DNA of 64,000 nucleotides from Actinomycetes bacterium (GTDB taxonomy: Bacteria; Actinomycetota; Actinomycetes; JBBQFP01): positions 34,326-98,325 of the forward strand of contig JBBQFP010000002.1 of the NCBI GenBank assembly GCA_038322045.1, written 5' to 3'. Positions 8,449 through 64,000 of this stretch are shown here, one piece after another (within the stretch, counting starts at the first letter, position 1; each line of letters starts with the position of its first letter). The notes below the pieces were generated by a model. That model searched no databases, had not been told where the DNA came from, and saw nothing but the letters and a program-made list of their open reading frames with translations. Both the position numbers and the translations under genes were made by a program.

Positions 8449-8453
8449 GTCAC

Positions 8454-10606: not shown

Positions 10607-10766
10607 GATGTGCCGGCTTCAAGGTCTATCGGCGGTTCTCGGCCATGGTTGAGGTCTGCACGAGCACTCGTACGCTCGTCGGTGCCGAGGCGGCTGACTG
10701 CTCAGCTGCTCGCGCGGCTGCTCGACGGGTCACGCGGGCCGCTAAGTCGGTGCGGGTGCGGCCGCG

Positions 10767-11762: not shown

Positions 11763-11795
11763 CCGGACGGGGCGCGCGTGGCGGTCGACGTCAGG

Positions 11796-12218: not shown

Positions 12219-12219
12219 G

Positions 12220-14667: not shown

Positions 14668-14700
14668 GCGTGCGCCCTTCGTTGCCATCGGTAAGACGTC

Positions 14701-14716
14701 CCGATCCTCAGATCGG
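14701..14716 (-). promoter_or_regulatory. perfect hairpin/palindrome CCGATC-ctca-GATCGG between the panD remnant and the cheA start
   Basis: Seen directly. Position fits a che operator or a weak terminator. Confidence 0.25.
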
Positions 14717-14738
14717 CATCTGGGCGCGAAGGTTGAGG

Positions 14739-14993
14739 TCAGAGGACGTGGCGGTTCTGCTCGTCGACGTGAACGACACGAGGAACGAAGCTCCGGGCCT
14801 CGGCGTCGTCGAGCGCGACGTAGCTGGCGATGATGACGAGGTCGCCCGGGTGGACGAGGTGCGCCGCAGCGCCGTTGATGGCGATGACGCCGGACCCCGC
14901 GGGACCGGCGATGACGTAGGTCTCGAGCCGCGCGCCGTTGGTGACGTCGAGGACGTGGACGAGCTCGTGCTCGAGGAGGTCGGCGGTGCGCAT
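14739..14993 (-). pseudogene. panD: aspartate 1-decarboxylase (PanD) C-terminal remnant with a disrupted N-terminus
   Basis: These 84 aa align well with PanD residues about 40-125 ([36 protein letters not shown]). The upstream in-frame sequence lacks any start codon and lacks the Gly-Ser self-cleavage site. A degenerate N-terminal-like stretch (TILRG) appears in a different frame. Confidence 0.5.
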
Positions 14994-15121
14994 GAGCGCC
15001 GCGTCGGCGACGGGGCGGGCACGGACCGGCGAAGGTCCCTGCCCGCCCCGTCGTGAGACCCCCGGGGAGGGGTGGTCGGTGGTCGGCGACCCCGCAGGAT
15101 CGTGCCGGGTGGCGCAGCTCG

Positions 15122-16477
15122 TCAGGTGGCGCTGCTGCTGCCGAGGGTGACCGTGACGGTGCTCGGCGTCCCGTTGCGGGTGTAGGTGAGCGGGACCGAG
15201 GCGCCGACCTTCTGCGACCGGACGGTCGTCGACAGGTCGCCGCCGTCCTGGATCTTTCGCCCGGCGAAGGACGTGATGACGTCGCCCTCCTTGAGCCCCG
15301 CCTTCTCCGCGGCGCTGCCGGAGCTCACCGAGGCGACGAGCGCGCCGCCGTCAGGGCTGTCGCCCACGGAGACGCCGAGCTGGGCGCGCTGGACGGTCCG
15401 GCCGGCGAGCAGGTCGTCGACGACGGTCCGCGCGTCGTCGATGGGGATGGCGAAGCCGAGGCCGATGCTGCCGGACTGTCCGCTGCTCGAGCCGAGCGTG
15501 GCGATGGCGGAGTTGATGCCGACGACGCGGCCCTGGGCGTCGACGAGAGCACCGCCAGAGTTACCGGGGTTGACCGCGGCGTCGGTCTGGATCGCGCTTC
15601 CCACGCTTGCCTGGGTCTGCATCCCGGAGCCGCCGAAGGGATCGCTCTGCTGCTGGGAGGAGCCCAGCCGGACCTGACGGTGCAGCGCGGAGACGATGCC
15701 CGAGGTCACCGACCCGTCCAGGCCGAGGGGGCTGCCGATCGCCAGGACGGTGTCTCCTACGTGCAGGCTCGTCGAGCTGCCGAGCGTCGCGGGCTTGAGC
15801 CCGCTGAGCCCCGAGGCCCGGATGACGGCGAGGTCGCTCGAGGGGTCCCGCCCGATGATCGTCGCCTTCGCGGTGCGCCCGTCGCTGAGCTTCACGGTGA
15901 TGTCGCCTCCGCCGTCCGCAGCGTCGGCGACGACGTGGTTGTTCGTGACGATGGTGCCGTCGGTGCGCAGGATGATCCCCGAGCCCTCACCGGCACCGGA
16001 CTGGGTCCTCACGTTGATGGAGACGACGCTGGGCTGCACAGCGGCGGCCACCTTGGCCAGCGGCTCGGTCGGACCGGTGACGTCGGAGGCCGGGGTGACC
16101 GGTGCGGAGGCGGCGTTCACCGACGTCGAGGACGACGGGGCCGGGTCGATCCCCCGCGAGATGGCCGCGCCCGCGGTGCCGCTACCGAGGGCGATGGCCC
16201 CGACGGCGACGCCTGCGGCGACCCGGCGCCGCCACCGCGGGGTGGTCGTCGGGGTCGCGACGGGCTGCGATCCGAGCCACGGCATGGCCGTCGTCGCCTC
16301 GCCCGCAGGCGGCACGGTGGTCGCGTGATCGCCCGCGAGCTCCGGGCCGGTCATCGGCTGCTCCTGCGGCGCCGCGGACTGCGCCCACCACGGTGCGGTC
16401 GTCGGCCGCGGGGTCGTCGCGTCCGGGTCACCTGCGCTGGGCTGCTGGGGCTGGGTGCGGAACTCGTCGTCGCTCAT
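15122..16477 (-). CDS. HtrA/DegP-like trypsin serine protease with PDZ domain
   Basis: GNSGGAL catalytic Ser motif, His/Asp regions and a C-terminal PDZ-like segment. Start trimmed to MSDDEFRT (ATG 16477). The long Arg-rich N-terminus of the track ORF was rejected. Confidence 0.8.
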
Positions 16478-37020: not shown

Positions 37021-37571
37021 GGCCGAGTCTGAATGATGGTCGGGTTGGGAGTTGCTCGGCCGCCCGTGGGCGTACGGGAACCGCCGGGTCTGCCGGCTTC
37101 TCCGAGGTCCTGGTTGTCAGGCCGGGCGGTGCTGTTCATCAGCGCATCGGGATCGCGACGATCGTGTCCAGAGCGGCGGTGGTCATGGCCACCGCCCAGG
37201 GCCAGTTCGGGGTCAGCGCGAGCCAGGCGGCGTTGGCCCTGCAGGCGACGTGCTCGAGATCGAGGCCGACCACCGCCGGCGCGCCGTCATCGATGCTGTC
37301 GACACCGGCGAGCTTCGACCCCCTGCGCAACGACATGGGCGCCGGCTTGGCCAACCCGTCCGAGGACGGCGGCTGGGACACGACGAGATCAAAACACGAC
37401 GAACCGGACTTCACGATCGACCCGCCGACACGCCAACCATCAGGCCCCCAACCGACCCCGGAGCCGATGACCTATCCAGTCACCTGAACCAGTGAAGGTC
37501 TTAGGTCCCGACTTGGTCGCCCGACTGTTGAACTCCGCTCGACCGAGGTCTAAGTTCCGCAAGCAACGACA

Positions 37572-37584
37572 CCTCACCGTGAGG
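37572..37584 (+). promoter_or_regulatory. perfect 6-bp inverted repeat (CCTCAC-c-GTGAGG) in the eat 5-prime leader, 23 nt upstream of the start
   Basis: Seen directly. Imperfect direct repeats (AGGTCTTAGGTCCCG / AGGTCTAAGTTCCG) at 37495-37560 precede it. Candidate operator or leader hairpin. Confidence 0.3.
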
Positions 37585-37606
37585 TGGCAGCGGCGGAAGG
37601 TCGCCC

Positions 37607-39061
37607 ATGGCCAGAACGACGCACACGACTGGCTCACAGGCTGTCGAGTACGACATCGAGGGCCGCGAGTACTTCGAGAAGCGAGAGCTGCGAGGCGGCG
37701 TCGCTGGCTGGCTGCTCCTCGCGGGGCTTGGGGTGGCCTACGTCATCTCGGGGGACTTCGCCGGGTGGAACTTCGGCTTGGAGCAGGGCGGTTGGGGTGG
37801 CCTGCTCGTGGCGACCATCCTCATGGCGACCATGTACCTCTTCATGGTTTTCGGCCTCGCCGAGCTATCCTCGACGATCTCCACCGCCGGTGGCGGCTAC
37901 GCATTCGCCCGGCGCGCCATGGGCCCCTGGGGCGGTTTCCTCACCGGCACCGCGATCCTCATCGAGTACGCGATCGCGCCGGCCGCCATCGCCAACTTCA
38001 TCGGGGCGTACGTCAACTCGCTGACCAACCGGGAGGTCCCCGGCTGGATCGTCTTCCTGGCGTTCTACGCGCTGTTCGTGGGCCTGCACCTCTACGGCGT
38101 CGGCGAGGCGCTCAAGCTGATGTTCGTCATCACGGCGATCGCTGTCGTGGCGCTGGTGGTCTTCGTGGTCGCGGCCGCCGTCAAGTTCGACCCGTCGAAC
38201 CTGCTGAACATCCCGAAGACCGACGCGGTGGGGGCCAGCTCGTTCCTGCCGTTCGGCGTGATCGGGATCTGGGCGGCGCTCCCTTACGCGATCTGGTTCT
38301 TCCTCGCCGTCGAGGGCGTGCCGATGGCCGCCGAGGAGACCAAGAATCCCGCCAAGGACATGCCCAAGGGAATCATCGTCGCGATGCTGGCTCTGCTGGT
38401 GTTCGCAGCGGCAGTCCTCACGACCGCGCCCGGCGCAGCCGGCTCGGAGTTCCTGCGCACATCCGGCAACCCGCTGGTCGAGGCGCTCGAAGCCCCGAAG
38501 GCGTACGGCGGGCAGAACTTCGTCAGCCAGTTCATCAACCTGGTCGGCCTGCTCGGGCTCATCGCGAGCTTCTTCTCGATCATCTACGGCTACTCCCGGC
38601 AGACCTTCGCGCTCTCCCGCGCCGGGTACCTGCCGAAGATCCTCTCGATCACCGGTCGACGCAAGACCCCGTTCCTCGCCCTCATTGTGCCCGGGATCAT
38701 CGGGTTCGTCATGGCCGTCTTCAACCAGGGCGACCTGCTCATCCTCGTGGCGGTCTTTGGTGCGACGATCTCCTACATCATGATGACGCTGTCGCACATC
38801 GTGCTCCGGAAGAGGGAGCCCGACCTGCCGCGGCCCTACCGCACGCCTGGCGGCGTCGTCACCACCGGCATCGCATGCGTCCTCGCCTGCATCGCGCTCG
38901 TTTCGGGTGCGCTGGTGGACCCGCGTGTCTTCTGGATCACAGCGGCCGTCTACGTGCTGGCGATCGCGTACTTCGCCCTCTACAGCCGTCACCACATCGT
39001 GGGGTCGGCCCCGGAGGAGGAGTTCGCGCTCATCGAGTCGGCGGAGGCCGAGCTCAACTGA
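37607..39061 (+). CDS. eat: ethanolamine permease (APC family)
   Basis: 484 aa, 12-TM APC transporter of the Eat type. GGAAGG RBS. First gene of the eut cluster. Confidence 0.8.
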   Translation: MARTTHTTGSQAVEYDIEGREYFEKRELRGGVAGWLLLAGLGVAYVISGDFAGWNFGLEQGGWGGLLVATILMATMYLFMVFGLAELSSTISTAGGGYAFARRAMGPWGGFLTGTAILIEYAIAPAAIANFIGAYVNSLTNREVPGWIVFLAFYALFVGLHLYGVGEALKLMFVITAIAVVALVVFVVAAAVKFDPSNLLNIPKTDAVGASSFLPFGVIGIWAALPYAIWFFLAVEGVPMAAEETKNPAKDMPKGIIVAMLALLVFAAAVLTTAPGAAGSEFLRTSGNPLVEALEAPKAYGGQNFVSQFINLVGLLGLIASFFSIIYGYSRQTFALSRAGYLPKILSITGRRKTPFLALIVPGIIGFVMAVFNQGDLLILVAVFGATISYIMMTLSHIVLRKREPDLPRPYRTPGGVVTTGIACVLACIALVSGALVDPRVFWITAAVYVLAIAYFALYSRHHIVGSAPEEEFALIESAEAELN

Positions 39062-39091
39062 TCCCCACAACGCCACGACGAAAGGGTCCGC

Positions 39092-39382
39092 ATGCTGATC
39101 GCGAGAGTCCGCGGCTCCGCCGTGTCGACCGTCAAGGAACGCAGCCTGGTGGGGCACAAGTTGCTGCTCGTGCAGGAGGCGACGGAGTGCGACGAGCTGA
39201 TCGGCCGGACGTTCGTCGCCGTCGACGGTGTCGGCGCGGGCACCGGCGAGCTCGTGCTCATCGCCACGGGGAGCGCCGCGCGCCACGGGGAGCGCACGCA
39301 GGACCAACCGGTCGATGCGCTCGTCATCGGCATCCTCGACTCGATGGACGTGGACGGTCAGACCACGTTCCGAAAGAGCTGA
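39092..39382 (+). CDS. eutN: BMC vertex protein (BMC-P, EutN/CcmL family)
   Basis: 96 aa, MLIARV...GSAV..K...G.KLLLV...VAVD.VGAG.GE.VL...GSAAR pattern of the EutN/PduN pentamer family. Confidence 0.85.
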   Translation: MLIARVRGSAVSTVKERSLVGHKLLLVQEATECDELIGRTFVAVDGVGAGTGELVLIATGSAARHGERTQDQPVDALVIGILDSMDVDGQTTFRKS

Positions 39383-39383
39383 C

Positions 39384-40820
39384 GTGCCGGTCTCAGGCCG
39401 CGACGTCCTCAGCGTCGGCATCGACGTGGGCACGACCACCACACAGGTCGTGTTCTCGCGGTTGTCGCTGCACGACGTCGCGCGCCCGGGACAGATACCC
39501 CGCATCCAGGTCGACGAGAAGTCGGTCGTCTACCGCAGCGAGGTCCACCCGACCCCGCTGACCAGTCCCGACGAGGTCGATGCGCCGGCCCTGGCGGCGA
39601 TCGTGCGCGAGGAGTACCGCCGCGCTGGCATCGAGCCGTCCGCCATCGAGACCGGCGCGGTCATCATCACGGGGGAGACCGCGCGCACCCGCAACGCCGA
39701 CGCTATCCTCGCGGAGCTGTCCAAGGAGGCCGGCGACTTCGTCGTCACGGTCGCCGGCCCGAACGCGGAGGCCCAGATCGCCGGGCGAGGCTCGGGCGTC
39801 GCTCGATGGTCAGCCGACCACTACGAGCAGGTCACCACCGTCGACGTCGGCGGCGGGACGTCGAACGCCGCGGTGTTCAAGATGGGCCGCCACCTGGGCT
39901 CGTCGGCGCTGGCAGTCGGCGGGCGCCAGGTCGAGATCGACAGCAGCGGCCGCGTGCTGCGCATCGCCCCACCGGGACGCTCCCTCGTCGAGGCGCTGGG
40001 ACTCGACCTGCGCGAGGGCGACGTCGCGACGCTGTCATCGTTGCGCCGCTTCTGCGACGTCATGGCCGATCTCATCGCCGACCTCGCTACCGGCCAAGAA
40101 GTCCGGATCGGCCGCGGCGTGCAGCTCACGCCACCGCTGCGCGACACCGCCGCGTCGACGTCGCTGTTCCTCACCGGCGGCGTGGGCGCTTGTTACTACG
40201 GGCGCGCGCCGTTCGGCACGGTCGCCGAGGTCGCGGCGTTTGGCGACGTCGGGCCGCTGCTCGCGGAGTCCTTGCGCCACAACGACCGGCTCGTGCGATT
40301 CACGGTGCGCGAGCCGCCGGAGACGCTGCGGGCCACCGTGCTCGGTGCCGCCGGGCAGACCGTGACGCTGTCGGGCTCCACGATCTGGGCCGACCGGCAG
40401 CTGCTGCCGTTGCGTAATCTGCCGGTGCTGCGTCCCTCGATGCCCGGCCGCGGCGGCGGTCCGCCGTTCGCCGAAGCCGTTGCCGAGGCCCGCAGCCGGT
40501 GGGATCTGGACGCCGATGCGCAGGTCGCGATCGTCGTCGACCTGCCCGCCGAGCTCGGCTACGCCGGGCTGACGGCTGTCGCCGGCGACATCGTGACCTA
40601 CCACGGCACGCGCCACGGCAGCTCACCGCTCGTCCTGGTCATGGCCCAGGACTACGCGCAGGTGCTCGGGCAGACCGTCCAGGCGCTGCGCCCGGGTCTG
40701 CCGCTGCTCGTCATCGACCAGGTCGGGCTCGGCGAGGGCGACTTCGTCGACGTGGGTGTGCCGATGCTGGACGGCCGCGCCGTCCCGCTCTCCATCAAGA
40801 CGCTGGTGTTCTATGACTGA
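39384..40820 (+). CDS. eutA: ethanolamine ammonia-lyase reactivase
   Basis: About 478 aa with EutA-like tandem actin-like ATPase motifs (GIDVGTTTTQ, DVGGGTSN). GTG start directly after the eutN stop. Confidence 0.85.
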   Translation: MPVSGRDVLSVGIDVGTTTTQVVFSRLSLHDVARPGQIPRIQVDEKSVVYRSEVHPTPLTSPDEVDAPALAAIVREEYRRAGIEPSAIETGAVIITGETARTRNADAILAELSKEAGDFVVTVAGPNAEAQIAGRGSGVARWSADHYEQVTTVDVGGGTSNAAVFKMGRHLGSSALAVGGRQVEIDSSGRVLRIAPPGRSLVEALGLDLREGDVATLSSLRRFCDVMADLIADLATGQEVRIGRGVQLTPPLRDTAASTSLFLTGGVGACYYGRAPFGTVAEVAAFGDVGPLLAESLRHNDRLVRFTVREPPETLRATVLGAAGQTVTLSGSTIWADRQLLPLRNLPVLRPSMPGRGGGPPFAEAVAEARSRWDLDADAQVAIVVDLPAELGYAGLTAVAGDIVTYHGTRHGSSPLVLVMAQDYAQVLGQTVQALRPGLPLLVIDQVGLGEGDFVDVGVPMLDGRAVPLSIKTLVFYD

Positions 40821-40853
40821 GTCCCACGCCCGAGGCTCGGGAGCTGAGGCCTG

Positions 40854-42218
40854 ATGCTCGCCGCCACGCTGTTCGGTCACCGGTACGAGTTCCGCGACGT
40901 CAAGGACCTCTTAGCGAAGGCCAACGAGGAGAAGTCCGGCGACCAGCTCGCCGGGATCGCCGCCGAGTCCGCCGCCGAACGCATGGCGGCGAAGTGGGTG
41001 CTGGCCGAGGTGACGCTCGAGACGCTGCGCCAGAATCCCGCCGTCCCGTACGAGCAGGACGAGGTCACGCGCGTCATCGACGACGCCGTCAACGAGACCG
41101 TCTACGGCGACATCAGGGGCATGGCCGTCGGCGAGCTGCGCGAGTGGTTGCTCGCCGACACGACGACCGAAGACATGATCAAGCGCACGTCGCTCGGCCT
41201 GACCGCCGAGATGGTGGCCGCGGTCACCAAGCTGATGTCGAACCTCGACCTCATGCTCGGCGCGAGCAAGATCCGCAACGTCAAGCACTGCAACAACACG
41301 ATCGGGCTTCGCGGCACGCTCGGCAGCCGGTTGCAGCCGAACCACCCCACGGACTCGGTTGAGGGCATCCGCGCCGAGATCTACGAGGGGCTCTCCTTCG
41401 GCTCGGGCGACAGCGTCATCGGCATCAACCCCTCCGACGACTCGATAGGCAGCGTCACGCGGCTCCTGGAGATGACGCACGAGGTCATCACGCGCTGGGA
41501 GATCCCGGCGCAGAACTGCGTGCTCGCCCACGTCTCCACGCAGATGGAAGCGCTCAAGAAGGGCGCGCCGGTCGGGTTGGTGTTCCAGTCCCTGGCCGGC
41601 TCGCAGCTGGGCTGCGAGTCGTTCGGGATCAGCGTCGGCATGCTGGACGAGGCGTACGCGCTGGCGAAGCGCTACTGCTGGACGCCGGGCCCGAACTACA
41701 TGTACTTCGAGACCGGCCAGGGCTCCGAGCTGTCCGCCGACGCGCACCACGGGGCCGACCAGCTCGTCATGGAGGCTCGCTGCTACGGGCTGGCGAGGCG
41801 CTACGACCCGTTCCAGGTCAACACGGTCGTCGGGTTCATCGGTCCGGAGTACCTCTACGACGCCACGCAGATCACCCGGGCCGGGCTCGAGGACCACTTC
41901 ATGGGCAAGCTCACCGGCATCTCGATGGGCTGCGACGTCTGCTACACCAACCACGCCCGCTCGACGCAGAACGAGAACGAGAACCTCGCGGTGCTCCTCG
42001 GCGCGGCCGGCGTGAACTTCATCATGGGCGTCCCGATGGGCGACGACGCGATGCTCAGCTACCAGAGCACCAGCTACCACGACGCGCCGAGCCTGCGCCG
42101 ACTGCTGAACCTGCGCCCCCTCCCGGAGTTCGAGCAGTGGATGACGGACCTGGGCCTGATGCGCGACGGCCGGCTGACCGAACGCGCTGGCGACGCCTCG
42201 TTCTTCCTCGGCCGCTGA
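40854..42218 (+). CDS. eutB: ethanolamine ammonia-lyase large subunit
   Basis: 454 aa with strong EutB similarity over its length. Confidence 0.9.
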   Translation: MLAATLFGHRYEFRDVKDLLAKANEEKSGDQLAGIAAESAAERMAAKWVLAEVTLETLRQNPAVPYEQDEVTRVIDDAVNETVYGDIRGMAVGELREWLLADTTTEDMIKRTSLGLTAEMVAAVTKLMSNLDLMLGASKIRNVKHCNNTIGLRGTLGSRLQPNHPTDSVEGIRAEIYEGLSFGSGDSVIGINPSDDSIGSVTRLLEMTHEVITRWEIPAQNCVLAHVSTQMEALKKGAPVGLVFQSLAGSQLGCESFGISVGMLDEAYALAKRYCWTPGPNYMYFETGQGSELSADAHHGADQLVMEARCYGLARRYDPFQVNTVVGFIGPEYLYDATQITRAGLEDHFMGKLTGISMGCDVCYTNHARSTQNENENLAVLLGAAGVNFIMGVPMGDDAMLSYQSTSYHDAPSLRRLLNLRPLPEFEQWMTDLGLMRDGRLTERAGDASFFLGR

Positions 42219-42228
42219 GGAGCGCGAC

Positions 42229-43251
42229 ATGCCTACCGTTGCCGCCGCCGAGATCCGCGCGATCGTCGCCGAGGTGCTCGCCGAGCTCGCGTCGTCCCGC
42301 GCCGCATCATCGGCCAGCGCGGCGCCGTCCTCGCCGGGCTCGCCGCTGCCCGCCGCTCCCCCGCCGGCCGGCTCGCCGCCCGCGACCACCGCTCCGGCAC
42401 CGCCCAAGGCGATGCCGACCGCGGCCGCGGGCGCAGCCGGCTCCCAGCCCTCGGGACCGACCCCGAGCATCGAGGTCGCCGACCCGACCGTCCCGGCCGC
42501 CCGGCACCGCATCGGCGTTAGCGACCCGGTCAACGCCAGCGGCCTGGAGAACCTCGTGGCCTCCACGACGGCGCGTATCGGCGTCGGCCGCGCCGGCTCT
42601 CGGCCGCCCACGGCGACGACGCTGCTCTTCGGGTCCGACCACGCAGTCACCCAGGACGCCATCTTCGGCACGGTCCCCGACGCGCTGCTCGAGCAGTTCG
42701 GCCTGTTCAGCGTGCAGACCCGGGTCAGCACCCGCGACGAGTACCTGCTGCGTCCGGACCTGGGCCGGCTGCTCTCCGACGATGGTCGGGCTCTGGTCGC
42801 GCAGCGCTGCGCGAAGAACCCCGACGTGCAGATCGTGGTGGGCGACGGCCTGTCCGCGGCGGCGATCACGAACAACCTCGACAAGATCTACCCGGTGCTC
42901 GAGCGCGGCTTCACCTCGGCCGGCGTCTCGCTCGGCACCCCGTTCTTCGTGCGGTTCTGCCGGGTGGGCGTGATCAACGACATCAACGATGTGATCGGCG
43001 CCGGCGTGGTCGTGCTGCTCATCGGCGAGCGGCCGGGACTCGGGGTCGCCGACGCGATGAGCGTCTACTCCGGGTGGCGTCCGACCGCCGGTAAGACCGA
43101 CGCGCACCGCGACGTCGTCTGCATGATCACCGAAAACGGAGGGACGAATCCCATGGAGGCTGGCGCGTTCGTCGTCGAGCATGTGCGGACCGTCCTGAAG
43201 GCACAGGGGAGCGGCGTCGACCTGCGGCTGCAGCAGAGCGCGAGCCGGTGA
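42229..43251 (+). CDS. eutC: ethanolamine ammonia-lyase small subunit with N-terminal extension
   Basis: C-terminal about 240 aa is EutC. The N-terminal about 20 aa amphipathic segment plus a about 70 aa Pro/Ala-rich linker is consistent with a BMC encapsulation peptide. Confidence 0.85.
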   Translation: MPTVAAAEIRAIVAEVLAELASSRAASSASAAPSSPGSPLPAAPPPAGSPPATTAPAPPKAMPTAAAGAAGSQPSGPTPSIEVADPTVPAARHRIGVSDPVNASGLENLVASTTARIGVGRAGSRPPTATTLLFGSDHAVTQDAIFGTVPDALLEQFGLFSVQTRVSTRDEYLLRPDLGRLLSDDGRALVAQRCAKNPDVQIVVGDGLSAAAITNNLDKIYPVLERGFTSAGVSLGTPFFVRFCRVGVINDINDVIGAGVVVLLIGERPGLGVADAMSVYSGWRPTAGKTDAHRDVVCMITENGGTNPMEAGAFVVEHVRTVLKAQGSGVDLRLQQSASR

Positions 43252-43907
43252 TGGGCGTCCTCGACCCGATCCGGGCCACCATCCTCGCCACCCGCGTCAT
43301 CTCGTCGGTCGAGCGCGGCCTCGCCCAGAAGTTCGAGCTCCGTGACGACCAGCACAGCCTCGCGCTGGTCACGTGCGACATCGACGACGTCCTGTACACC
43401 TCGCTCGACGAGGCGACCAAGAAGGCCGACGTCGAGGTCGTCTACGCCCGCAGCTTCTACGCCGGCTCGGCGCACGCCTCCGGACCGCTGTCCGGGGAGA
43501 TCATCGGCGTCTTGGCCGCTCCCGACCCAGAGGAGGCGCGGGCCGGGCTGGCCGCCTGCGTCGACTACGCGATGACGAAGGCGTGGTTCGAGGCGGCCGA
43601 CGAGGCAGGCGACCTCGCGTTCTTCAGCCACCCGATCTCGCGTACCGGCAGCTTCTTGTCCAAGGAGGCCGGCGTCCCGCTCGGCACCTCGCTCGGCTAC
43701 GTCATCGCCCCCCCGCTCGAGGCGACGTTCGCCCTCGACGCCGCGCTGAAGGCCGCGGAGGTCGAGCTCAAGGTGTGGTTCGCACCGCCCTCCGAGACCA
43801 ACTTCTCCGGCGGCTACCTCATCGGCGACCAGAGCGCCGTCGTCGCGGCGTGCAGCGCGTTCCGCGACGCCGTCGTCTCCGTCGCCGCCGGGCCGCGGGA
43901 GGTCTGA
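43248..43907 (+). CDS. eutL: BMC-T shell protein (permuted tandem BMC, EutL)
   Basis: 219 aa that aligns along EutL (LALVTCDIDDVLYTS...VVYARSFYAG...SRTGSFLS). Confidence 0.85.
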   Translation: MMGVLDPIRATILATRVISSVERGLAQKFELRDDQHSLALVTCDIDDVLYTSLDEATKKADVEVVYARSFYAGSAHASGPLSGEIIGVLAAPDPEEARAGLAACVDYAMTKAWFEAADEAGDLAFFSHPISRTGSFLSKEAGVPLGTSLGYVIAPPLEATFALDAALKAAEVELKVWFAPPSETNFSGGYLIGDQSAVVAACSAFRDAVVSVAAGPREV

Positions 43908-45433
43908 TGGGCGCCGTTCACGCCGGCAATGAGCTGGACGCCGACCTGCGCTCGGTCCAGGAGGCCCGGAGCCTCGCGCTGGCCTGCCGGGAGGCACAGC
44001 GGCAGTTCGCGACCGCCACCCAGGAGCAGGTCGATCGCGTCTGCGCGGCCATGGCCGACGCGGTGTACCGCGACGCCGAGCGGCTCGGTCGGCTCGCGCA
44101 CGAGGAGACCGGGTACGGCGTCGCAGCCCACAAGCGGCTGAAGATCGAGTTCGCCTCGCGCACGGTGTGGGAGTCGATCCGAGACCTGCGCACCGTCGGG
44201 GTGCTGCGGCGGGACGACGAGCGCCGGGTCGTCGAGATCGGGTGGCCGGTCGGCGTGATCGTCGGCCTGACGCCGTCGACGAATCCCAACTCCACCGCCG
44301 TGTACAAGGTCCTGATCTCGGTCAAGGCCCGCAACGGGATCATCATCGCCCCGCACCCGGCGGCCGTCCGGTGCTCCTACGAGGCCGTGCGGATCATGGC
44401 CGAGGCCGGCGAGCGCGCGGGTATGCCGCGTGGCCTGGTCGCCTGCATGCAGGAGGTCTCCCTGAAGGGCTCGCAGGAGCTTATGCGCCACGAGGCGACC
44501 TCGTTGATCCTCGCGACGGGCGGCACACCGATGGTCCGGGCGGCGCACAGCACGGGCAAGCCCGCTTTCGGCGTCGGCCCGGGCAACGTGCCGGTGTACG
44601 TCGACCGCAGTGCCGACGTCCCGGCCGCCGCCCGCGCGATCGTCAACAGCAAGGCGTTCGACTCCTCGGTGATCTGCGCGACCGAGCAGGCGGTCGTCGT
44701 CGACCGCCCGGTCGAGGCGGCGCTGCGCGCCGAGATGATCGCCAACGGCGCCTACTGGGTGCCGCCCGCGGACAAGCCGGCGCTGGAGCGCGCGCTTTTC
44801 ACGCCCACGCTCGGCATGGACCCGATGGCCGTCGGGCGCACCCCGCAGCAGCTCGCCGCGAAGGCTGGCATATCGGTGCCCCCCGAGGCACGGATCCTGG
44901 TGGTCGACCTCGACCGGGTCGGGCGCTCGGAGCCGCTGTCCGGCGAGAAGCTCACCACGGTGCTCGGCTTCTACGTCGCGGACGGCTGGCGCGCCGGGTG
45001 CGACCGCGCCGTCGAGCTGCTCCACCACGGCGGCGACGGACACTCGATGGTCATCCACGCCACCGACGAGGACGTCATCCTGACCTTTGGCATCGAGAAG
45101 CCGGCGTTCCGAATCCTCGTCAACACGTGGGGCACGCTCGGCGCGATCGGGGCCACGACAGGCGTGATGCCGGCACTCACGCTGGGTCCCGGCGGCATCG
45201 GCGGCGCGGTCGTCGGCGACAACATCACGACCACCCATCTGCTCAACGTCAAGCGGCTCGCGTACCCGCTGCGGGAGCCGCCGCCGATCGCGTACGAGCT
45301 GGCGCCCGACGTCCGGCCCGGCGCGCCCACAACCGCTCGCGACGGCCGCACGGCCGCTGGCGCTATGGTCCTCGACGAGCAGGTCGAGCGGATCGTGGCC
45401 CGCGTCCTCGCGCAGCTCGGCGGCCGGCCGTGA
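43907..45433 (+). CDS. eutE: CoA-acylating acetaldehyde dehydrogenase
   Basis: ALDH-like EutE/PduP family. 508 aa with a about 45 aa C-terminal extension. ATG overlaps the eutL stop by 1 nt. Confidence 0.85.
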
Positions 45434-45579
45434 CCGCGGACACTGCGTCGGCGCCGAAGACCACCCCTGATCGCGCGCCGGGGCCGGACGCCCGCCGTCC
45501 GGACCGCAGCACCCATCCCCCGCCGCACCGGAGCGACCTTGACGACCCGGCACCACCTCCCCCCGGAAGGACCAGCACA

Positions 45580-45891
45580 GTGGCGACTCCCCAGCTCATC
45601 GCGCTCGGCATGATCGAGACCCGCGGCCTCGTCGGCGCCATCGAAGCCGCCGACGCCATGGTCAAGGCGGCGAACGTGACCCTCATCGGCAAGGAGCAGA
45701 TCGGCGGTGGCTACGTCACCGTGATGGTCCGCGGCGACGTCGGTGCCGTGAAGGCCGCCACCGACGCCGGTGCTGCCGCGGCGCAGCGCGTCGGCGACCT
45801 CGTCAGCGTGCACGTCATCCCCCGGCCGCACGGCGACGTCGAGTTCATCCTGCCGACGACCAGGTCGGGCGGCGTTCCCGACACCATCTGA
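45580..45891 (+). CDS. eutM: BMC-H shell protein (EutM/PduA family)
   Basis: [26 protein letters not shown] canonical BMC (Pfam00936) domain. GTG start with a GGAAGGA RBS. Confidence 0.85.
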
Positions 45892-45931
45892 CCCGACCTG
45901 ACCTGCTGGTCGCTGCTGCCGAAGGGTTCCC

Positions 45932-46537
45932 GTGAGGGACGACGATCCCGTCGCGTTCCGCCGTGTCGTCACGGCCGAGGACGTGCTCCGCCTCGTCCGC
46001 GAGGGCGTGGCGGAGCTCGCCGTCGGCCCGGACGACCGGTTCACCTCGCTCGCGCGCGACCTGGTGCGCGAGAAGGGGGTGCGCGTCGTCGTCCGCGACG
46101 CAGCCGGACGCGGCGGTGGTCCCGCACCCGGGCCTGACGTGCCCGCGCTCCCGCCGGTGGCGTCCCGGTCCGGCCCGGCTCGCCGGCTCACCCACGTGGC
46201 CGACGTGCTGCGTCTGACGCTGGACCCCTTCCCGGTCGAGCTCGGCCGGCCGGCGATGGACGTGCGGCTGCGCGACGTCGTGACCGCGCGGGACGGGCTG
46301 CCGATGGCCGCCGGCGTCATGAGCCTGCGGGAGGGCAGCTTTCCCTGGCATCTCGACTACGACGAGGTGGAGTATGTCCTCGAGGGCGAGCTGCACATCA
46401 CGACTCCCGACCAGAAGGTCGTCGGGCGTCCCGGCGATGTCATCGCCGTCCCGAAGGGCTCCTCCATCACCTTCGGGACGCCGTCCTGGGCCAAGTTCCT
46501 CTACGTCACCTACCCCGCGGACTGGAGCGGAGCGTGA
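45932..46537 (+). CDS. eutQ: ethanolamine utilisation cupin protein EutQ
   Basis: C-terminal cupin ([32 protein letters not shown]) and an N-terminal EutQ-type domain (VTAEDV...[24 protein letters not shown]). Confidence 0.75.
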
Positions 46538-47367
46538 AGGACGTCGAGTCCACGATGGCGGCAGCCGCAGCGGTGATGGCCACACCGGACCGGCCCGCCG
46601 AGCGCCCCGCCGCGCTGAAGGTCGGGGTCGACCTCGGCACGGCATACACGGTCGTGGTCGCGCTCGACGCCGACGACCGACCGCTCGCCGGCGCCTACGA
46701 GTTCGCCGACGTGGTGCGCGACGGCGTCGTCACGGACTTCCTCGGCGCGGTCGACCTGGTGCGCCGGCTCAAGCGGCAGGTCGAGGACCGACTCGGGTGC
46801 TCGATCGCCGCGGCGCACGGCGCGTTCCCGCCGGGAGTGCCCGCGGCCGAGGTCCGGGCTGTCCGGCACGTCATCGAGGCGTGCGACATGGACTGCTCGG
46901 GGCTGGTCGACGAGCCGTCCGCGGCCAACGCCGTCCTGCAGCTCACCGACGGGGTCGTCGTCGACGTCGGAGGCGGTACCACCGGGATCGCCGTCGTGCG
47001 GGACGGCATCGTCGTGCACACCGCCGACGAGGCCACCGGCGGTACCCACATGACCCTCGTCATTGCCGGGGCGCTCGGCGTGCCGTTCGAGACGGCCGAG
47101 CGGCACAAGCTCGACCCGGCACAGCAGGTGCGCCTGCTCCCGCTGATCCGTCCGGTGATGGAGAAGGTTGCCGAGATCGCGCGGCGCAACACCGCGGGGT
47201 TCGACGTCCCACACATCACCCTCGTCGGAGGCCCCGCGGCCTTCCCCGGCTTTGCCGAGGCGGTGACGGATGCTCTCGGCGTGCCGACCACCGTCCCGCC
47301 GCATCCGCTGTTCGTGACCCCGCTCGGGATCGCGCGGAGCGCGCCCGTGTACGCCCCCCTGTCCTGA
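46534..47367 (+). CDS. eutJ: EutJ (Hsp70/actin-like chaperone)
   Basis: GVDLGTAYT, DVGGGTTGIAV and LVGGPAAFPG actin-fold ATPase motifs. GTG start overlaps the eutQ stop. Confidence 0.8.
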   Translation: MKDVESTMAAAAAVMATPDRPAERPAALKVGVDLGTAYTVVVALDADDRPLAGAYEFADVVRDGVVTDFLGAVDLVRRLKRQVEDRLGCSIAAAHGAFPPGVPAAEVRAVRHVIEACDMDCSGLVDEPSAANAVLQLTDGVVVDVGGGTTGIAVVRDGIVVHTADEATGGTHMTLVIAGALGVPFETAERHKLDPAQQVRLLPLIRPVMEKVAEIARRNTAGFDVPHITLVGGPAAFPGFAEAVTDALGVPTTVPPHPLFVTPLGIARSAPVYAPLS

Positions 47368-47392
47368 CACCGCTCGATCGAGGAGACCTCCC

Positions 47393-48016
47393 GTGGCCGA
47401 CGACCTGGAGCTGCGCTGCTACAGCTACATCGACCGGATGCAGCCGCAGTACGCGTCCTTCGTGGGCACGGTGACCTCCGGGGACCTGCCGGTGGAGGGC
47501 ATGGCCGCCCTGTACGTGGAGATGGCGCCGGGCAACCACGTGTTCCGGGTCGTCGACGTCGCCGTGAAGGCGACCGACGCGCGGCCGGGCGCGCAGATCG
47601 TCGAGCGGCAGTACGGCATGTTCGAGCTGCACTCGCAGTCGCAGGCCGAGGTGCTGCAGGCGGGCGACGCGGTGCTCGCCGAGCTCGGGCTCCGCGCGAC
47701 CGACCGGGTACGACCCAAGATCGCGTCGCTGCAGGTCATCACGAATGTGAGCCCGTACCAGTCGCAGCTGCTCAACCGGTTCACCCGCGGCATGATGCTC
47801 GTCGCCGGCCAGACCATGCTGGTGGTGGAGTGCACGCCCGCCGCGTACATCAACTTCGCCGCGAACGAGGCCGAGAAGGCCGCGACGGTCAACCTCATGC
47901 ACGTCGCGTCCATCGGCATCTTCGGCCGGCTGTGGATGGCCGGCTCCGAGGCCGACATCGTGACCGCGCGTGACGCCGTGGTCTCAGCGCTGGAGGGCAT
48001 CGATGGCCGGGACTGA
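47393..48016 (+). CDS. tandem BMC-domain shell protein (non-permuted BMC-T, PduT/CcmO-like)
   Basis: Two consecutive segments each align to the canonical BMC-H fold (ALYVEMAPGNHVFRVVDVAVKATDA... and LVVECTPAAYINFAANEAEKAATV...). A Cys is present in the second domain. Confidence 0.65.
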   Translation: MADDLELRCYSYIDRMQPQYASFVGTVTSGDLPVEGMAALYVEMAPGNHVFRVVDVAVKATDARPGAQIVERQYGMFELHSQSQAEVLQAGDAVLAELGLRATDRVRPKIASLQVITNVSPYQSQLLNRFTRGMMLVAGQTMLVVECTPAAYINFAANEAEKAATVNLMHVASIGIFGRLWMAGSEADIVTARDAVVSALEGIDGRD

Positions 48017-48350
48017 CGCGCAGCGGCGCCGCTTCGTCACCCGCGCCCACGTCGAGGACGCGGCCGCCACGGGGCAAGCCCTGCGCCTCGGCCCGCGCGA
48101 CGTGCTCACCGACGAGGCGGGGACCCGCGCCCGCGACCTCGGCGTGGCGATCGAACGGGACGGCGCGCCGGCCGGGGCTCCCGGTCGCCGCCCTACGCAG
48201 GCCCCTGCCGCGTCAGGCGCCGCGACATCGCAGGGCGAGGACGCGCTGCGTGTCGCCGTCCGGGCCGCCGTCGTCGCCGAGCTCGGCGCGGGCACGCCGG
48301 GCATCGATGCCGCGATCGACCGGGTCTTCGCCCGCCGCGCCAGCCGCTAG
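48003..48350 (+). CDS. small protein with an EutQ N-terminal-like domain only
   Basis: RRRFVTRAHVEDAAATGQALRLGPRDVLTDEAGTRARDLGVAIE shares the motif of the EutQ N-domain and is followed by an Ala-rich tail. Overlaps the BMC-T 3-prime end by 14 nt. Confidence 0.4.
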   Translation: MAGTDAQRRRFVTRAHVEDAAATGQALRLGPRDVLTDEAGTRARDLGVAIERDGAPAGAPGRRPTQAPAASGAATSQGEDALRVAVRAAVVAELGAGTPGIDAAIDRVFARRASR

Positions 48351-48611
48351 GACTCGACCAGCCACCGCGCCTGGTACGGCCGCCAGTGCTCGGCCACGCC
48401 GAACAGCTCGAGCAGCGGTCCGAGCGGGTGCTCCCGCAGCACGTGCAAGACCCCGAAGCGGCGTGACCCTCCCCCTGCCGCGCCGGCCGCCGCCGCGTCG
48501 TCGTCGTCGATCGCCCTCCCGATGTCGTCGTGGCAGCGCATGTAAGTGATCCACGCTGTCGTCCCCCGTTTTGGGCCAGGGGTGGGAGACGGACACGGCG
48601 TGCGAGCGCGG

Positions 48612-49347
48612 TCAGACCAGGGATGCGCACTGACCGATCGCGTTGCGGCCGACGACGTTGACGCTGCCGAGGACGAAACCTCCGGACACTCCCGGGGTCA
48701 GTCCCGTGCAGGTGAGGTTCCGCCCGATCGTGTTGCGAACGATGTAGACGCCGGGGCGCCCAGGTGGGGGTCGTTCAACGCGAAGTTGGTCAGTGTCGCG
48801 TTCCTGCCGATCTTGTTGAAGAGTACGCCAGCCACTCGGTTCTCTGCCCGCTGACCGTGAGGTTCCCGCCGACCGTGTTGTTCTTGATCGACCACGGAAT
48901 CGGGCCGCCTCCACCGGTCAGAGTGACGTTCCTCGCGACCGTGATCCCGTTCAGCAGAACGACGAACGCGTTGAGGGCCGAGACGTTTCCGTTGATAGTG
49001 ACGGTGGAGTGCCCGTCCGGCTCGTCGGTGCACTCGTGTCCCGAGTTGCCCGTGTACGAGGGCGGCTGGCAGCCCAGACCGAGGATCGAGCCGGAAGCCA
49101 CGGTGACGTTGTGCCCGACGGTGATCGTCGAGGGCGCGCTTTGCGCGTCGAGGACGGCGCCAGCTCCGACGTTCACGTTCCCGACGACGGTGATCACGGC
49201 ATCGGCCGGCACGGAGCACCCGCCCGTGACCGTGCCACAGCCCAGGGCCAGGTTTCGGGCAGGGCGAGCCGGGCGGCGCTGGCCACGAAGTTGCCCGGCA
49301 GGTGCGCCAGCCCGGCGCTGGCTGGAGCAGTGCCGTGGTGCGTTCAA
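48612..49347 (-). pseudogene. beta-helix repeat protein gene with internal frameshift
   Basis: Periodic ITVxGNVxV / NTVGGNLTV / RNTIGRNLT repeats continue across two reading frames (48790-49347 and 48612-48914). Confidence 0.4.
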
Positions 49348-49349
49348 AG

Positions 49350-49745
49350 ATGCAGCCCACGGGCCGTTTCACCGTTCTCCGGCTCGAGGTCGCCGACCGT
49401 GTGACGCACCTACCCGGACAGCACTACGTCGTGCGGCTGCGCGCCGACGACGGGTACACCGCGTCCCGCTCGTACTCTGTCGCGTCCGCACCCGTCGATC
49501 CCCTGGTGAAGCTCTGCGTCGAGCAGCTCGACGACGGCGAGGTGTCGGGGTTCCTCGCCGACGTCGTCGAGGTCGGCGACACCCTCGAGGTTCGGGGACC
49601 GATCGGCGGCTGGTTCGTCTGGGACGGTGCGACCCCCGCGCTCGCAGTCGGCGGCGGGTCTACGCCGAGGAAATCCTCGACGGCTGTCACGTCGTGGCGC
49701 TCTCCCAAGAAGCGTCGCCCACCAGACGCCCGGCCGTTCGCCTGA
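49350..49745 (+). pseudogene. FNR-like FAD-binding oxidoreductase fragment (truncated before the NAD-binding domain)
   Basis: RSYSVAS FAD-binding motif and ...LAVGGGS, then the frame is lost. Confidence 0.35.
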
Positions 49746-49789
49746 CCGAGGCAGACCTCCTGCCGTTCCTGTTGGAGGGTCAGGCGGTG

Positions 49790-50077
49790 CCCGCTGCCCG
49801 CAACTGTCGTCGGGCTGCGGGACCGACTTCGTGCCGCCGACGCGCTGCTCATCTGCACCCCGAGTACGCAGTCGGTCTCCCCGGCTCCTTCAAGAACCTG
49901 CTCGACTGGACCGTCGGCAGACAGGAGGTCGAGCGTCCCGTCGGGTGGATCAACGAGTCCACCTCCCCCACCAGCGCCCGCCGCGCGCACGAGTCCCTCA
50001 GTGCCGTCCTCGGCTACAGCGGCGCCCACGTCGTCGAGACCACCTGTTCGTCGAGAGATGCTCGACGCCTCGGCTAG
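49790..50077 (+). pseudogene. NAD(P)H-dependent FMN reductase fragment
   Basis: HPEYAVGLPGSFKNLLDW motif typical of the SsuE/ArsH-type FMN reductase core, lacking an N-terminus. Confidence 0.3.
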
Positions 50078-50353
50078 ATGACGGATCTCCGCGTCTGTGC
50101 CGAGGTGGCGGAGGCCCTGGCCGAGCTGGTTCGGGCGGTGGATGCTGCGGAGCGCGAGACCCTGAGGTGACGGATCGGCCGGTGTCGACGACGCCGGTGG
50201 CCAGGGCAGGTGATTCGGGTCACGACCCGGCGACGCGACGAGACGCGGTGCGCCATCGACTTGGGCCGGACCCACCAAGGGGCGACCCCGTGTTGGGTCG
50301 CCCCTCGGCCTACGCGTCGCTCGGGTCGATCGACACGACTTGGTGCGCTGTCG

Positions 50354-63026: not shown

Positions 63027-64000
63027 ATGCGTCGACCCCGCTCGCTGGTTGCCCGGACACGGCCCGACGACCCCGGTGACATCGGGCTCGCGGTGACCCT
63101 CGGGCCGTACCTGGAACGCACCGAGGATGCGCGCTTCTACGAGGGCGGGCTGCCCGGCCGCAGCGTGGGCGACACCCTGTACTCGCGCTCCGGGCTGTTC
63201 CTCGCGAACGATCCGCAGGTCCGCGTCGCCACCAAGGCCACGGTGGGGGTCACGTACCACCGGAGCAACGGCAGCGAGTTCACGGCGGCTCTGCTCGAGA
63301 CCGTCACCTTCGCCGACGGCAGCAGCCTGCGCTGCGAGGGGACCGCGAACCTGTCCGCTTTCGAGCGCTTCGACACCGACATCGTGCTCTCAGCCGGCGA
63401 CGGCACCGGATCGTGGTGGGGCTGGCAGGGCACCCAGGTGACCGAACGCACCACCGGTGAGCCCAGCCAAGCCCGAAGGACCTGGTTCCAGATGTCCGCA
63501 CAGAGCCGGGAGAGCGCCGGATCGGGACCCCGGTTCCTGCCGCCTCGGGCCACCAGCGGACTCGTCGAGCCGGTGAAGGCAGCCGACGTCTGGCCGGTGC
63601 TGGTCGGCGGCGAGCGGCGTCCGTTGGAGGTGATGCCCGTGCTCGACACGAGCGTCCCGGACCGCTTCGCCGTCTTCATCGTCGCGGCTCAGGTGGACGA
63701 CGGCGGGATCCTACCGGGGCTCGACGCCGTCCTGGCGCCGCGACTGGCCGCACACCAGATGCCCACCGGCTCGGCTGTGAGCGCAGGTGCTCAGGCGCCC
63801 GCCCTGGGCTATCTGGTGCTGGCCACGCCATACGGCCTGGCGCGCGGCTGGGCGCACGCAGGAGCCCATGCCCTGGCCGCCGCCCTCGATCCCGCGCTGC
63901 CCGTGGCCGTCAGCGTGGAGATCGCCCAGGCCGGCGGCCCGCCCGTGCCCACCCCCCTCGACGGCGCCGAGCCGATCCGTTGGGGAGTCGATCGCGGCCT
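63027..64000 (+). CDS. hypothetical protein, 3-prime partial (runs off the window end)
   Basis: Open frame of 324+ codons with no stop, beginning at the ATG 6 nt after the permease stop. Absent from the ORF track because no stop is reached. Confidence 0.5.
   Translation, partial: MRRPRSLVARTRPDDPGDIGLAVTLGPYLERTEDARFYEGGLPGRSVGDTLYSRSGLFLANDPQVRVATKATVGVTYHRSNGSEFTAALLETVTFADGSSLRCEGTANLSAFERFDTDIVLSAGDGTGSWWGWQGTQVTERTTGEPSQARRTWFQMSAQSRESAGSGPRFLPPRATSGLVEPVKAADVWPVLVGGERRPLEVMPVLDTSVPDRFAVFIVAAQVDDGGILPGLDAVLAPRLAAHQMPTGSAVSAGAQAPALGYLVLATPYGLARGWAHAGAHALAAALDPALPVAVSVEIAQAGGPPVPTPLDGAEPIRWGVDRG

Follow-up and report, generated by a model that had tools for sequence, protein, structure and literature searches.

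A probable EUT3-type ethanolamine microcompartment cassette in an actinomycete, with a free-standing homologue of the EutQ N-terminal region

We analysed a 64-kb stretch of an Actinomycetes genome (assembly GCA_038322045.1, contig JBBQFP010000002.1, positions 34,326 to 98,325 of the forward strand; hereafter the window, in whose coordinates all positions are cited) and found on its plus strand, at 37607-48350, a self-contained cassette of 11-12 genes for an ethanolamine-utilisation (EUT) bacterial microcompartment (BMC). The cassette is very probably a member of the catalogued EUT3 class. Its last gene (48003-48350) encodes a free-standing homologue of EutQ's N-terminal part; whether this small protein has taken over the tethering of cargo to shell is, in our estimate, an evenly balanced question, developed below.

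The EUT3 class was described by Sutter et al. in 2021 (Nat Commun 12:3809; PMC8217296, Supplementary Data 2). Besides EutABC, it comprises a shell set with one each of BMC-H (hexamer), BMC-P (pentamer), BMC-Tsp (single-stack trimer) and BMC-Tdp (double-stacking, circularly permuted tandem-BMC trimer). The cassette has this same composition. The signature proteins EutB, EutC and EutA are all encoded (PF06751, PF05985, PF06277), and the shell genes are one BMC-H, one BMC-P, one EutL-type BMC-Tsp and one BMC-Tdp, the last being the hallmark of EUT3. The catalogue places EUT3 loci mostly in Micrococcales and Propionibacteriales, within a host range that is mainly Actinobacteria with some Chloroflexi and Spirochaetes, and the EUT3 members of its BMC-Tdp tree are Nocardioides JS614 (Noca_4027, 207 aa), Kineosphaera (limosa), three Tessaracoccus, Anaerolinea and Alkalispirochaeta. 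The supplementary trees carry EUT3 under the hidden Markov model (HMM) names Tdp_ultramarine_EUT3, P_bordeaux_eut3-like and Tsp_cerise4. Host range fits as well, the loci nearest to ours being from Nocardioidaceae, Dermatophilaceae, Actinotalea and Nanopelagicales, then from Anaerolineae and Caldilineae. The assignment was made by setting enzymes, shell set, gene order and host range against the catalogue description; the catalogue itself describes the EUT3 acylating acetaldehyde dehydrogenase (AldDH) as distinct from those of EUT1 and EUT2 and nearest to SPU6 in phylogeny. In subsequent papers, EUT1, EUT2 and EUT3 figure as the three main types of EUT locus. The "EUT3" of Axen et al. (2014), from Desulfitobacterium, is a different type that was renamed EUT2K in 2021 (PMC8217296); Axen et al. 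make no mention of Nocardioides, Kineosphaera, Tessaracoccus or Anaerolinea.

A first-pass annotation, made from the letters of the sequence, had recognised a compact, self-contained eut BMC locus in a high-GC actinobacterium, which the HMM matches and the base composition bear out. It had also taken the architecture to be unusual and actinobacterial eut genes to be usually a bare eutBC-eat set. The novelty so implied is not supported: EUT3 was described in 2021 with the same shell set, mostly from Micrococcales and Propionibacteriales, and the same gene order was found in at least 12 other species-level genomes. The comparison of gene order with the BMC catalogue, which that annotation had proposed, thus led to a known class, an outcome that it had itself named as one that would refute its reading. 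The hallmark had escaped it because the BMC-Tdp was taken for a PduT-like protein.

The GC content of the window is 0.70 overall and uniformly high (0.67-0.76), which makes lists of open reading frames (ORFs) noisy; the gene run was picked out by third-position GC, and appeared as a single plus-strand run of 12 genes between 37.6 and 48.35 kb. Identities were assigned with Pfam and NCBIfam HMMs, and with PDB sequence matches for the BMC-Tdp, and start codons were refined. The features are as follows.

37528-37556, plus strand: putative promoter-like element, TTGAAC-17 nt-TAAGTT, upstream of eat (locus alignment)
37607-39061, plus strand: eat, ethanolamine permease, 484 aa (TIGR00908 equivalog, 579 bits, cut-off 382; PF00324)
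39092-39382, plus strand: BMC-P pentamer vertex protein of the EutN/CcmL family, 96 aa (PF03319, 2.5e-28, full length)
39384-40820, plus strand: eutA, ethanolamine ammonia-lyase reactivase, 478 aa (PF06277, 1.4e-161)
40854-42218, plus strand: eutB, ethanolamine ammonia-lyase large subunit, 454 aa (PF06751, 2.9e-209)
42229-43251, plus strand: eutC, small subunit, 340 aa (PF05985, 7e-73, residues 106-333 only)
43248-43907, plus strand: eutL, permuted single-stack trimer shell protein (BMC-Tsp), 219 aa (TIGR04502, 333.5 bits, cut-off 300; PF00936 in two stretches)
43907-45433, plus strand: CoA-acylating AldDH, 508 aa (TIGR02518, 551 bits, under the cut-off of 620; PF00171)
45434-45579, plus strand: non-coding spacer separating the AldDH gene from that of BMC-H (stops in the upstream extension of homologues)
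45580-45891, plus strand: BMC-H hexamer shell protein, EutM-like, 103 aa (PF00936, 8.9e-31; NF012018 EutM, 143.5 bits, cut-off 133)
45932-46537, plus strand: eutQ, 201 aa (PF06249, 8e-35, residues 105-199, the cupin part, only)
46534-47367, plus strand: eutJ, actin/Hsp70-fold chaperone-like protein, 277 aa (NF011660, 336.5 bits, cut-off 182)
47393-48016, plus strand: BMC-Tdp, CcmP/CsoS1D-like double-stacking permuted tandem-BMC trimer protein, 207 aa (PDB matches)
48003-48350, plus strand: conserved gene for a small protein of 115 aa, homologous to EutQ residues 1-~99 but free-standing (homologue alignment, hhalign, structure model)

All 12 ORFs of the first-pass annotation are present on the plus strand over the span it gave, with high third-position GC, and 11 of its gene labels were confirmed by HMM; the PduT-like label of 47393-48016 was wrong, and the last ORF starts at 48003 rather than at 47970. 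The BMC-domain HMMs it had called for matched the BMC-P (PF03319) and both EutL and BMC-H (PF00936). The top NCBIfam match of the BMC-P is CcmL, under the cut-off of that family. The BMC-H gene starts with GTG at 45580, preceded by the ribosome-binding site GGAAGGA, and its translation contains the KAAN and PRPH interface motifs of facet proteins. An N-terminal extension of this protein from GTG 45430 was considered and ruled out by in-frame stops upstream in most homologous loci. The spacer ahead of it, which measures 46-159 nt in all homologous loci, showed no significant fold (z +0.69 against shuffles). No further copies of the four shell proteins were found by tblastn in the whole window.

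On sequence grounds, the product of 47393-48016 is a CcmP/CsoS1D-like BMC-Tdp. It has no PF00936 match at E<=0.01 and no match to PduT (TIGR02526), and its sole NCBIfam match is CcmP (NF053796) with 258 bits, under the cut-off of 340. Compared with PDB sequences it aligned over nearly its full length with CcmP (4HT5, 3.4e-64), 5V76 (6e-61) and CsoS1D (3F56, 4e-47), and also with 5LSR, 6N07, 5V74, 7DHQ, 5SUH and 5L39. These matches, which all cover approximately residues 5-205 and include the BMC-T2/T3 proteins of Haliangium (HO; 5V76, 5V74) and RMM proteins (5SUH, 5L39), are without exception double-stacking, circularly permuted tandem-BMC trimers. The failure of plain BMC HMMs is explained by the permuted domains and is no evidence against a shell protein. 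Homologues of the BMC-Tdp in the protein collection were already annotated with PF27545 (CsoS1D_N), while the Pfam-A copy that we scanned gave the window protein no family; the copies of Pfam evidently differ, and the absence of a Pfam hit is to be read accordingly. The identity proposed earlier, a PduT-like BMC-Ts, was ruled out, as the protein has neither two PF00936 domains nor a TIGR02526 match and aligns end to end with the CcmP type. Residues E71-R72 are conserved and align with the Glu-Arg pair at CcmP residues 69-70, which we take to be the pore gate of CcmP and CsoS1D. In spite of full-length homology to CcmP, CsoS1D and the HO BMC-T2 and T3 proteins (4HT5, 3F56, 5V74), the window protein differs from CcmP and CsoS1D in lying in a catabolic ethanolamine locus rather than a carboxysome.

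Relatives were gathered by a EutL search taking one genome per species, and the 12 window proteins were mapped onto 80 retrieved loci. At least 12 other species-level genomes have the order P-A-B-C-L-ald-H-Q-J-Tdp-small ORF (L001, L004, L005, L006, L007, L010, L011, L012, L013, L020, L027, L030), belonging to Nocardioidaceae, Dermatophilaceae/Nostocoides, Actinotalea, Nanopelagicales and unclassified Actinomycetes. The eat gene stands in front in 7 of these 12; in the Dermatophilaceae and Nanopelagicales loci L004, L005, L013, L027 and L030 the cassette begins at BMC-P with no eat directly upstream (three of these five share a flanking gene family, f11, unrelated to the cassette). Loci on shorter contigs (L002, L003, L008, L009, L021, L022) are compatible with the same order, and variant loci occur in Chloroflexi (L014-L018) and in a Desulfobacterales metagenome-assembled genome (L019). 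Protein identity between the window and the actinobacterial EUT3-like loci is 60-96%; for individual proteins of EUT3-like loci it is 83-86% (EutB), 92-96% (BMC-H), 82-88% (BMC-Tdp) and 60-79% (AldDH, with 69-79% in the comparison that gave the other three values). Flanking genes are unrelated from locus to locus and no flank family is conserved, so the cassette is a self-contained module with no conserved regulator, phosphotransacylase (PTAC) or alcohol dehydrogenase (AlcDH) adjoining it. A search of a plasmid collection yielded no EUT3 relative, the only matches being eat and eutB fragments with 71-79% identity.

The cassette shares with the EUT3 type EutABC, the shell set and an actinobacterial host, and its AldDH is far from those of EUT1 and EUT2-like loci. 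We found no structural difference from the type; the window cassette has eat and lacks an adenosyltransferase. Two other EUT3-like loci carry a PduO-type cobalamin adenosyltransferase gene (PF01923) between eutQ and eutJ (L083, 5640-6473; L084, 4348-5118), and since the window cassette has no PduO, adenosylation of B12 must come from elsewhere. With EUT3 a named type since 2021 and its leaning towards actinobacteria on record, the locus adds little as such. Within Actinomycetota, EUT3-like cassettes of this gene order do extend beyond the two taxonomic orders that the catalogue names, to Nanopelagicales and unclassified Actinomycetes lineages, and partial contigs carry EUT3-like cassettes in Acidimicrobiales and Nitriliruptoraceae. 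With 11-12 genes, four of them for the shell, the cassette would make an attractive minimal ethanolamine metabolosome for reconstitution.

Comparison with the enterobacterial EUT1 loci (Salmonella enterica and E. coli, eutSPQTDMNEJGHABCLKR) showed the same first two chemical steps, 37-74% identity to E. coli for the homologues of EutA, B, C, L, M, N, J and of the EutQ cupin (EutB 59%, EutL 50%), and in both cases encapsulation peptides on the cargo and a EutQ-type module linking shell to cargo. In contrast to EUT1, the window cassette lacks EutS, EutK, EutP, EutT, EutD, EutG, EutH and EutR, imports by Eat rather than EutH, has a BMC-Tdp that EUT1 lacks, and apparently distributes the linker module over two genes. 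Its AldDH, with only 32% identity to E. coli EutE, represents the other main type and bears the peptide at the C-terminus rather than the N-terminus. The proteins by which EUT1 is recognised (Pta-type EutD, EutR, EutS, EutK) were unmatched in the cluster and in every scanned ORF of the window.

The AldDH raises the question of EUT2, the class of Firmicutes such as Clostridium, Enterococcus and Listeria. The cassette and EUT2 have in common a TIGR02518-like type I AldDH with a C-terminal peptide and the core order eutA-B-C-L-ald-H, so that one may think of a reduced, Firmicute-like EUT2 locus that was acquired horizontally. Consistent with such an origin, an AldDH of the TIGR02518 (IPR013357) kind with C-terminal peptide is, in the catalogue, "type I, dominated by EUT2" (PMC8217296), and the sub-order eutA-B-C-L-ald-H-...-J is common to the EUT2-like loci L023-L080. 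The rest of the locus speaks otherwise. EUT2-like loci have several BMC-H genes, place BMC-P after eutJ and have no CcmP-type Tdp adjoining eutJ (L052 alone has a distant Tdp match, at 41%, elsewhere), whereas the window cassette has a single BMC-H, a BMC-Tdp and its BMC-P at the front of the operon. Identities to EUT2-like loci are 40-48% for AldDH, 35-48% for EutC and 33-43% for EutA, against 60-86% to the EUT3-like group. The usual marks of EUT2 are a PduL-type PTAC and two-component regulation by EutV/EutW (87% of loci; PMC4207490), and the type has no BMC-Tdp; PduL and EutVW are absent from the cluster and its scanned surroundings, and no PduL, ANTAR or histidine-kinase gene was found in or adjoining the cluster. 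We consider a EUT2 derivation very improbable and retain membership of EUT3.

A second account of the locus starts from the sugar-phosphate BMC SPU6, which would have shed its SPU enzymes after capturing a satellite of eutABC and eutL. The catalogue (Sutter et al. 2021, PMC8217296) describes a fusion route that yields loci "similar to EUT3", and places the BMC-Tdp and AldDH of EUT3 and SPU6 in adjacent clades. A bare eutA-B-C-L satellite of the expected kind is seen in L054, from the catalogued SPU6 genome Chloroflexi bacterium 44-23; this block contains no other shell or AldDH genes and exemplifies the EutABC+EutL satellites of those authors. Yet the fused loci of the catalogue come from Chloroflexi and Spirochaetes and branch basally in SPU6, whereas the gene order of the window is that of actinobacterial EUT3, with 60-96% identity to actinobacterial loci, and no DeoC or RpiB remnant was found in or adjoining the cluster. 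Such a fusion bears on the origin of the whole EUT3 type more than on this locus, for which we give it very little chance.

We turn to the small gene at the end of the EUT3 cassette. It starts with ATG at 48003 and overlaps the stop codon of the BMC-Tdp gene by 14 nt. This start was preferred to 47970 because an identical 115-aa protein is on record at NCBI and 28 homologues align from that Met. Pfam and NCBIfam gave no match for the 126-aa reading of the ORF, and the 73 homologues of the 115-aa protein are all "hypothetical" or unnamed, with no Pfam family. A profile search of 1.84 billion representatives (50% identity clusters) returned 390 family members at E<=1e-3, mostly of 90-150 aa and aligned end to end. 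Of the 17 fetched loci with a Tdp, 15 have the small gene directly behind that of the BMC-Tdp; three further contexts sampled are all EUT3-like, and there it comes right after BMC-Tdp or eutJ.

The family alignment shows an N-terminal domain rich in invariant residues (RRRFVTRxxVEDAxxxG...RDVLTDEAxxRAxDLGV), a disordered, low-complexity Pro/Ala-rich linker of variable length, and a conserved pair of C-terminal helices (LRxAVRAAVVAELGxxxPGLDAAIDRVLxRR; LRVAVRAAVVAELG...IDAAIDRVFARR in the window). An AlphaFold2 model of the 115-aa protein (mean predicted local distance difference test score 79.5) agrees with this layout: residues 10-52 form an alpha/beta domain, predicted with confidence, whose helices are 14-23 and 37-46; disorder follows at 58-74, then helices 74-94 and 101-114. 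A Foldseek search of the PDB with this model yielded small alpha/beta fragments of a generic kind, none with an E-value under 0.3. Profile comparison was more telling. Against the N-termini of the EutQ proteins from the same loci, hhalign aligned the N-domain at 96.6% (E 6e-10); against the N-regions of EutQ proteins with enterobacterial architecture (E. coli EutQ and those of L015, L017, L018, L024 and L076) it returned 97.2% (E 3.5e-11) over 82 columns, query 9-108 and template 2-84, an alignment that spans the N-domain and the first C-terminal helix. In the latter, the H3 motif VRAAVVAELG of the 115-aa protein corresponds to IRETIIAQLPEG in E. coli EutQ. The "EutQ-N-like" label originally given to this ORF was therefore sound.

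The function of the homologous region is known from Salmonella, where, according to a 2025 study (Sci Adv 2025, PMC12487888), EutQ residues 1-99 consist of helices H1/H2, a long flexible region and helices H3/H4, and link shell and cargo: H1/H2 bind EutL/EutM, H3/H4 bind the encapsulation peptides of EutC and EutE, and assembly does not require the cupin domain. The 115-aa protein presents the same order of elements, with profile homology at both ends, the difference being that it is a separate gene and has no cupin. Conversely, the window EutQ has an N-terminal domain of the H1/H2 type, a Pro/Gly-rich linker and the cupin, without the H3/H4 helices of enterobacterial EutQ, while the Chloroflexi EutQs keep an H3-like helix, LEAKIRAAVVKVLG. 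These observations suggest that the linker function may be split in actinobacterial EUT3, the 115-aa protein acting as shell-cargo tether and EutQ as a shell-anchored cupin enzyme. In a fuller form the proposal would hold that EUT3 BMCs use the cupin-less EutQ-N homologue as tether next to a EutQ devoid of cargo helices, as a result of fission and sub-functionalisation, and, as a weaker second part, that the BMC-Tdp pore carries CoA/acetyl-CoA and NAD+/NADH; we judge the arguments for and against this whole to be about equal in weight. If true, it would mean that the very module recently shown to organise assembly of the Salmonella Eut BMC has been split, and the small gene would extend the 2025 model of the EutQ linker, testably, to a compartment with linker and cupin enzyme as separate proteins. 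The available portions of the EUT3 catalogue (PMC8217296) and of the 2025 EutQ paper (PMC12487888) contain no mention of a free-standing EutQ-N-like gene.

Another arrangement of these elements was seen in L085, where a gene right after BMC-Tdp (9001-9768; protein P0388, 255 aa) encodes three EutQ-N-type H1/H2 domains followed by H3/H4, in a locus without eutQ and eutJ. P0382 is another such three-domain protein; these proteins have 245-255 aa and occur in EUT3-like loci lacking eutQ/eutJ.

Both enzymes expected as cargo carry candidate targeting helices. EutC begins with an encapsulation-peptide-like helix at approximately residues 4-23 (AAAEIRAIVAEVLAELA); a linker rich in Pro, Ala and Ser comes next, some 80 aa long, and the N-terminal motif xE(V/I)RxIVxxVLAEL is conserved in related loci. 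In AldDH the last ~20 aa form a similar helix, whose motif is conserved in 15 related loci, in agreement with the "type I AldDh, C-terminal EP" entered in the catalogue (PMC8217296). The compartment would then work as follows. Eat, an equivalog-level HMM match, would import ethanolamine; the adenosylcobalamin-dependent EutBC, reactivated by EutA, would convert it to acetaldehyde and ammonia, and AldDH would turn the volatile and toxic acetaldehyde into acetyl-CoA and NADH, as their family assignments predict. EutC and AldDH would be drawn into the lumen by their amphipathic helices, the conservation of which is consistent with targeting. The shell would be built of BMC-H facets and BMC-P vertices together with EutL (BMC-Tsp) and the CcmP/CsoS1D-like BMC-Tdp. 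Judging from homology to Salmonella EutQ 1-99, shell and cargo would be tethered by EutQ-type N-terminal modules divided between two proteins: EutQ would supply the cupin and a putative shell-binding H1/H2 domain, while H1/H2, a flexible linker and putative H3/H4 cargo-binding helices would come from the 115-aa protein.

The scheme has gaps. As the first-pass annotation had listed, eutD/pduL, eutG, eutT, eutH, eutK, eutS, eutP and eutR/eutVW had no match in the cluster (Pfam and NCBIfam) or in 38 flanking ORFs (Pfam), a scan that left aside two ORFs called by third-position GC (15186-16328, 63137-63688) and gaps at about 17.2-20.1, 22.6-23.4 and 51.7-53.2 kb. The flanking ORFs include a sugar ABC transporter, KDPG aldolases, a PfkB kinase, a MOSC protein, dehydrogenases of a sugar-acid cluster, chemotaxis genes and a multicopper oxidase; a Pta, Fe-ADH or PduO is not among the scanned ORFs. 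With no PTAC or AlcDH at hand, acetyl-CoA and NADH would have to leave the compartment and CoA and NAD+ to enter, or partner enzymes would be encoded elsewhere. The large gated pore of the BMC-Tdp is a speculative candidate for the cofactor route; traffic through it, if real, would make an internal PTAC and AlcDH unnecessary in a metabolosome of an aerobic lineage.

Three points weigh against the cassette as a working EUT3 compartment. The core is incomplete, with no PTAC, AlcDH, adenosyltransferase or regulator in the cluster or scanned window ORFs, so that activity would depend on unlinked genes or cofactor traffic; AldDH, BMC-P, BMC-Tdp and EutQ do not reach NCBIfam equivalog cut-offs; and the literature searched contains no experimental characterisation of any EUT3 BMC, its function being assigned by homology. 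Incomplete cores have already been described for many EUT loci (Axen et al. 2014). One may nonetheless suppose that the shell is vestigial or insufficient, leaving a eutBC-eat pathway outside any compartment, or that the system is inactive for want of a complete core. The missing PTAC, AlcDH, EutT and regulator would accord with this, and Axen et al. raised a similar doubt about another EUT locus without core. Against it, none of the four shell genes, the two encapsulation peptides or the putative linker gene is disrupted, and BMC-H retains its two interface motifs. Moreover, the cassette is conserved at 60-96% in at least 12 species amid unrelated flanks, which indicates purifying selection on the cassette as a whole. 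A vestigial or inactive system is therefore quite unlikely, in our view, and a EUT3 compartment, predicted to be functional, is the reading we keep.

Alignment of the loci upstream of eat showed that the -10 part of the promoter-like element lies within a motif, (a)GGTCTAgcGT, found some 60-80 nt before the eat start and conserved in 8 related loci (L001, L003, L006, L007, L010, L011, L012, L020). Several loci have TTGCC(G) 17 nt farther upstream. The window carries two copies of the motif, GGTCTTAGGT at 37497 and GGTCTAAGTT at 37547, and the eat 5' leader contains a perfect hairpin, CACCTCAC-CG-GTGAGGTG, at 37570-37586. Judged from its letters and position, the element would be either a promoter (-35/-10) or an operator overlapping the -10. 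A generic scan for sigma-70 promoters and terminators returned 0 promoter-like and 0 terminator-like sites, and Rfam found no riboswitch or RNA family in 34-52 kb, the only match being a chance snoRNA hit with E 0.6.

An imperfect direct repeat of 51-53 nt with 85% identity brackets the cassette, with one copy at 37188-37238, 369 bp upstream of eat, and one at 49234-49284, 884 bp downstream of the small ORF. The 64 kb contain the 18-nt core of the repeat, GCCACNGCCCAGGGCCAG, at these two places only (0.07 expected), and none of 82 fetched loci has it. The repeat may be a gene fragment that was duplicated when the cassette arrived here by insertion or rearrangement. A tRNA scan of the window found none, hence no signature of a tRNA-linked island. 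The 2 kb downstream of the cassette (48350-50350) have the look of gene debris: a beta-helix-like ORF of 185 aa on the minus strand (48790-49347) has no Pfam match, a FAD_binding_6 fragment (49302-49745) stops after a GGGS motif, and a plus-frame stretch ending at 50077 resembles, by eye, the tail of an FMN reductase.

Farther away, the window contains a block of chemotaxis genes at 8065-15324 (for CheA, CheW, CheB and a response regulator) and a beta-ketoacyl synthase II (KAS II) gene (4850-6094) whose product has its best non-self match, among 5.8 billion proteins, at 80% identity, with named neighbours scattered over the Actinomycetes. The chemotaxis block and the divergent KAS II suggest that the host is motile and belongs to an Actinomycetes lineage that has been poorly sampled, and it is probably uncultured and outside any well-sampled genus.

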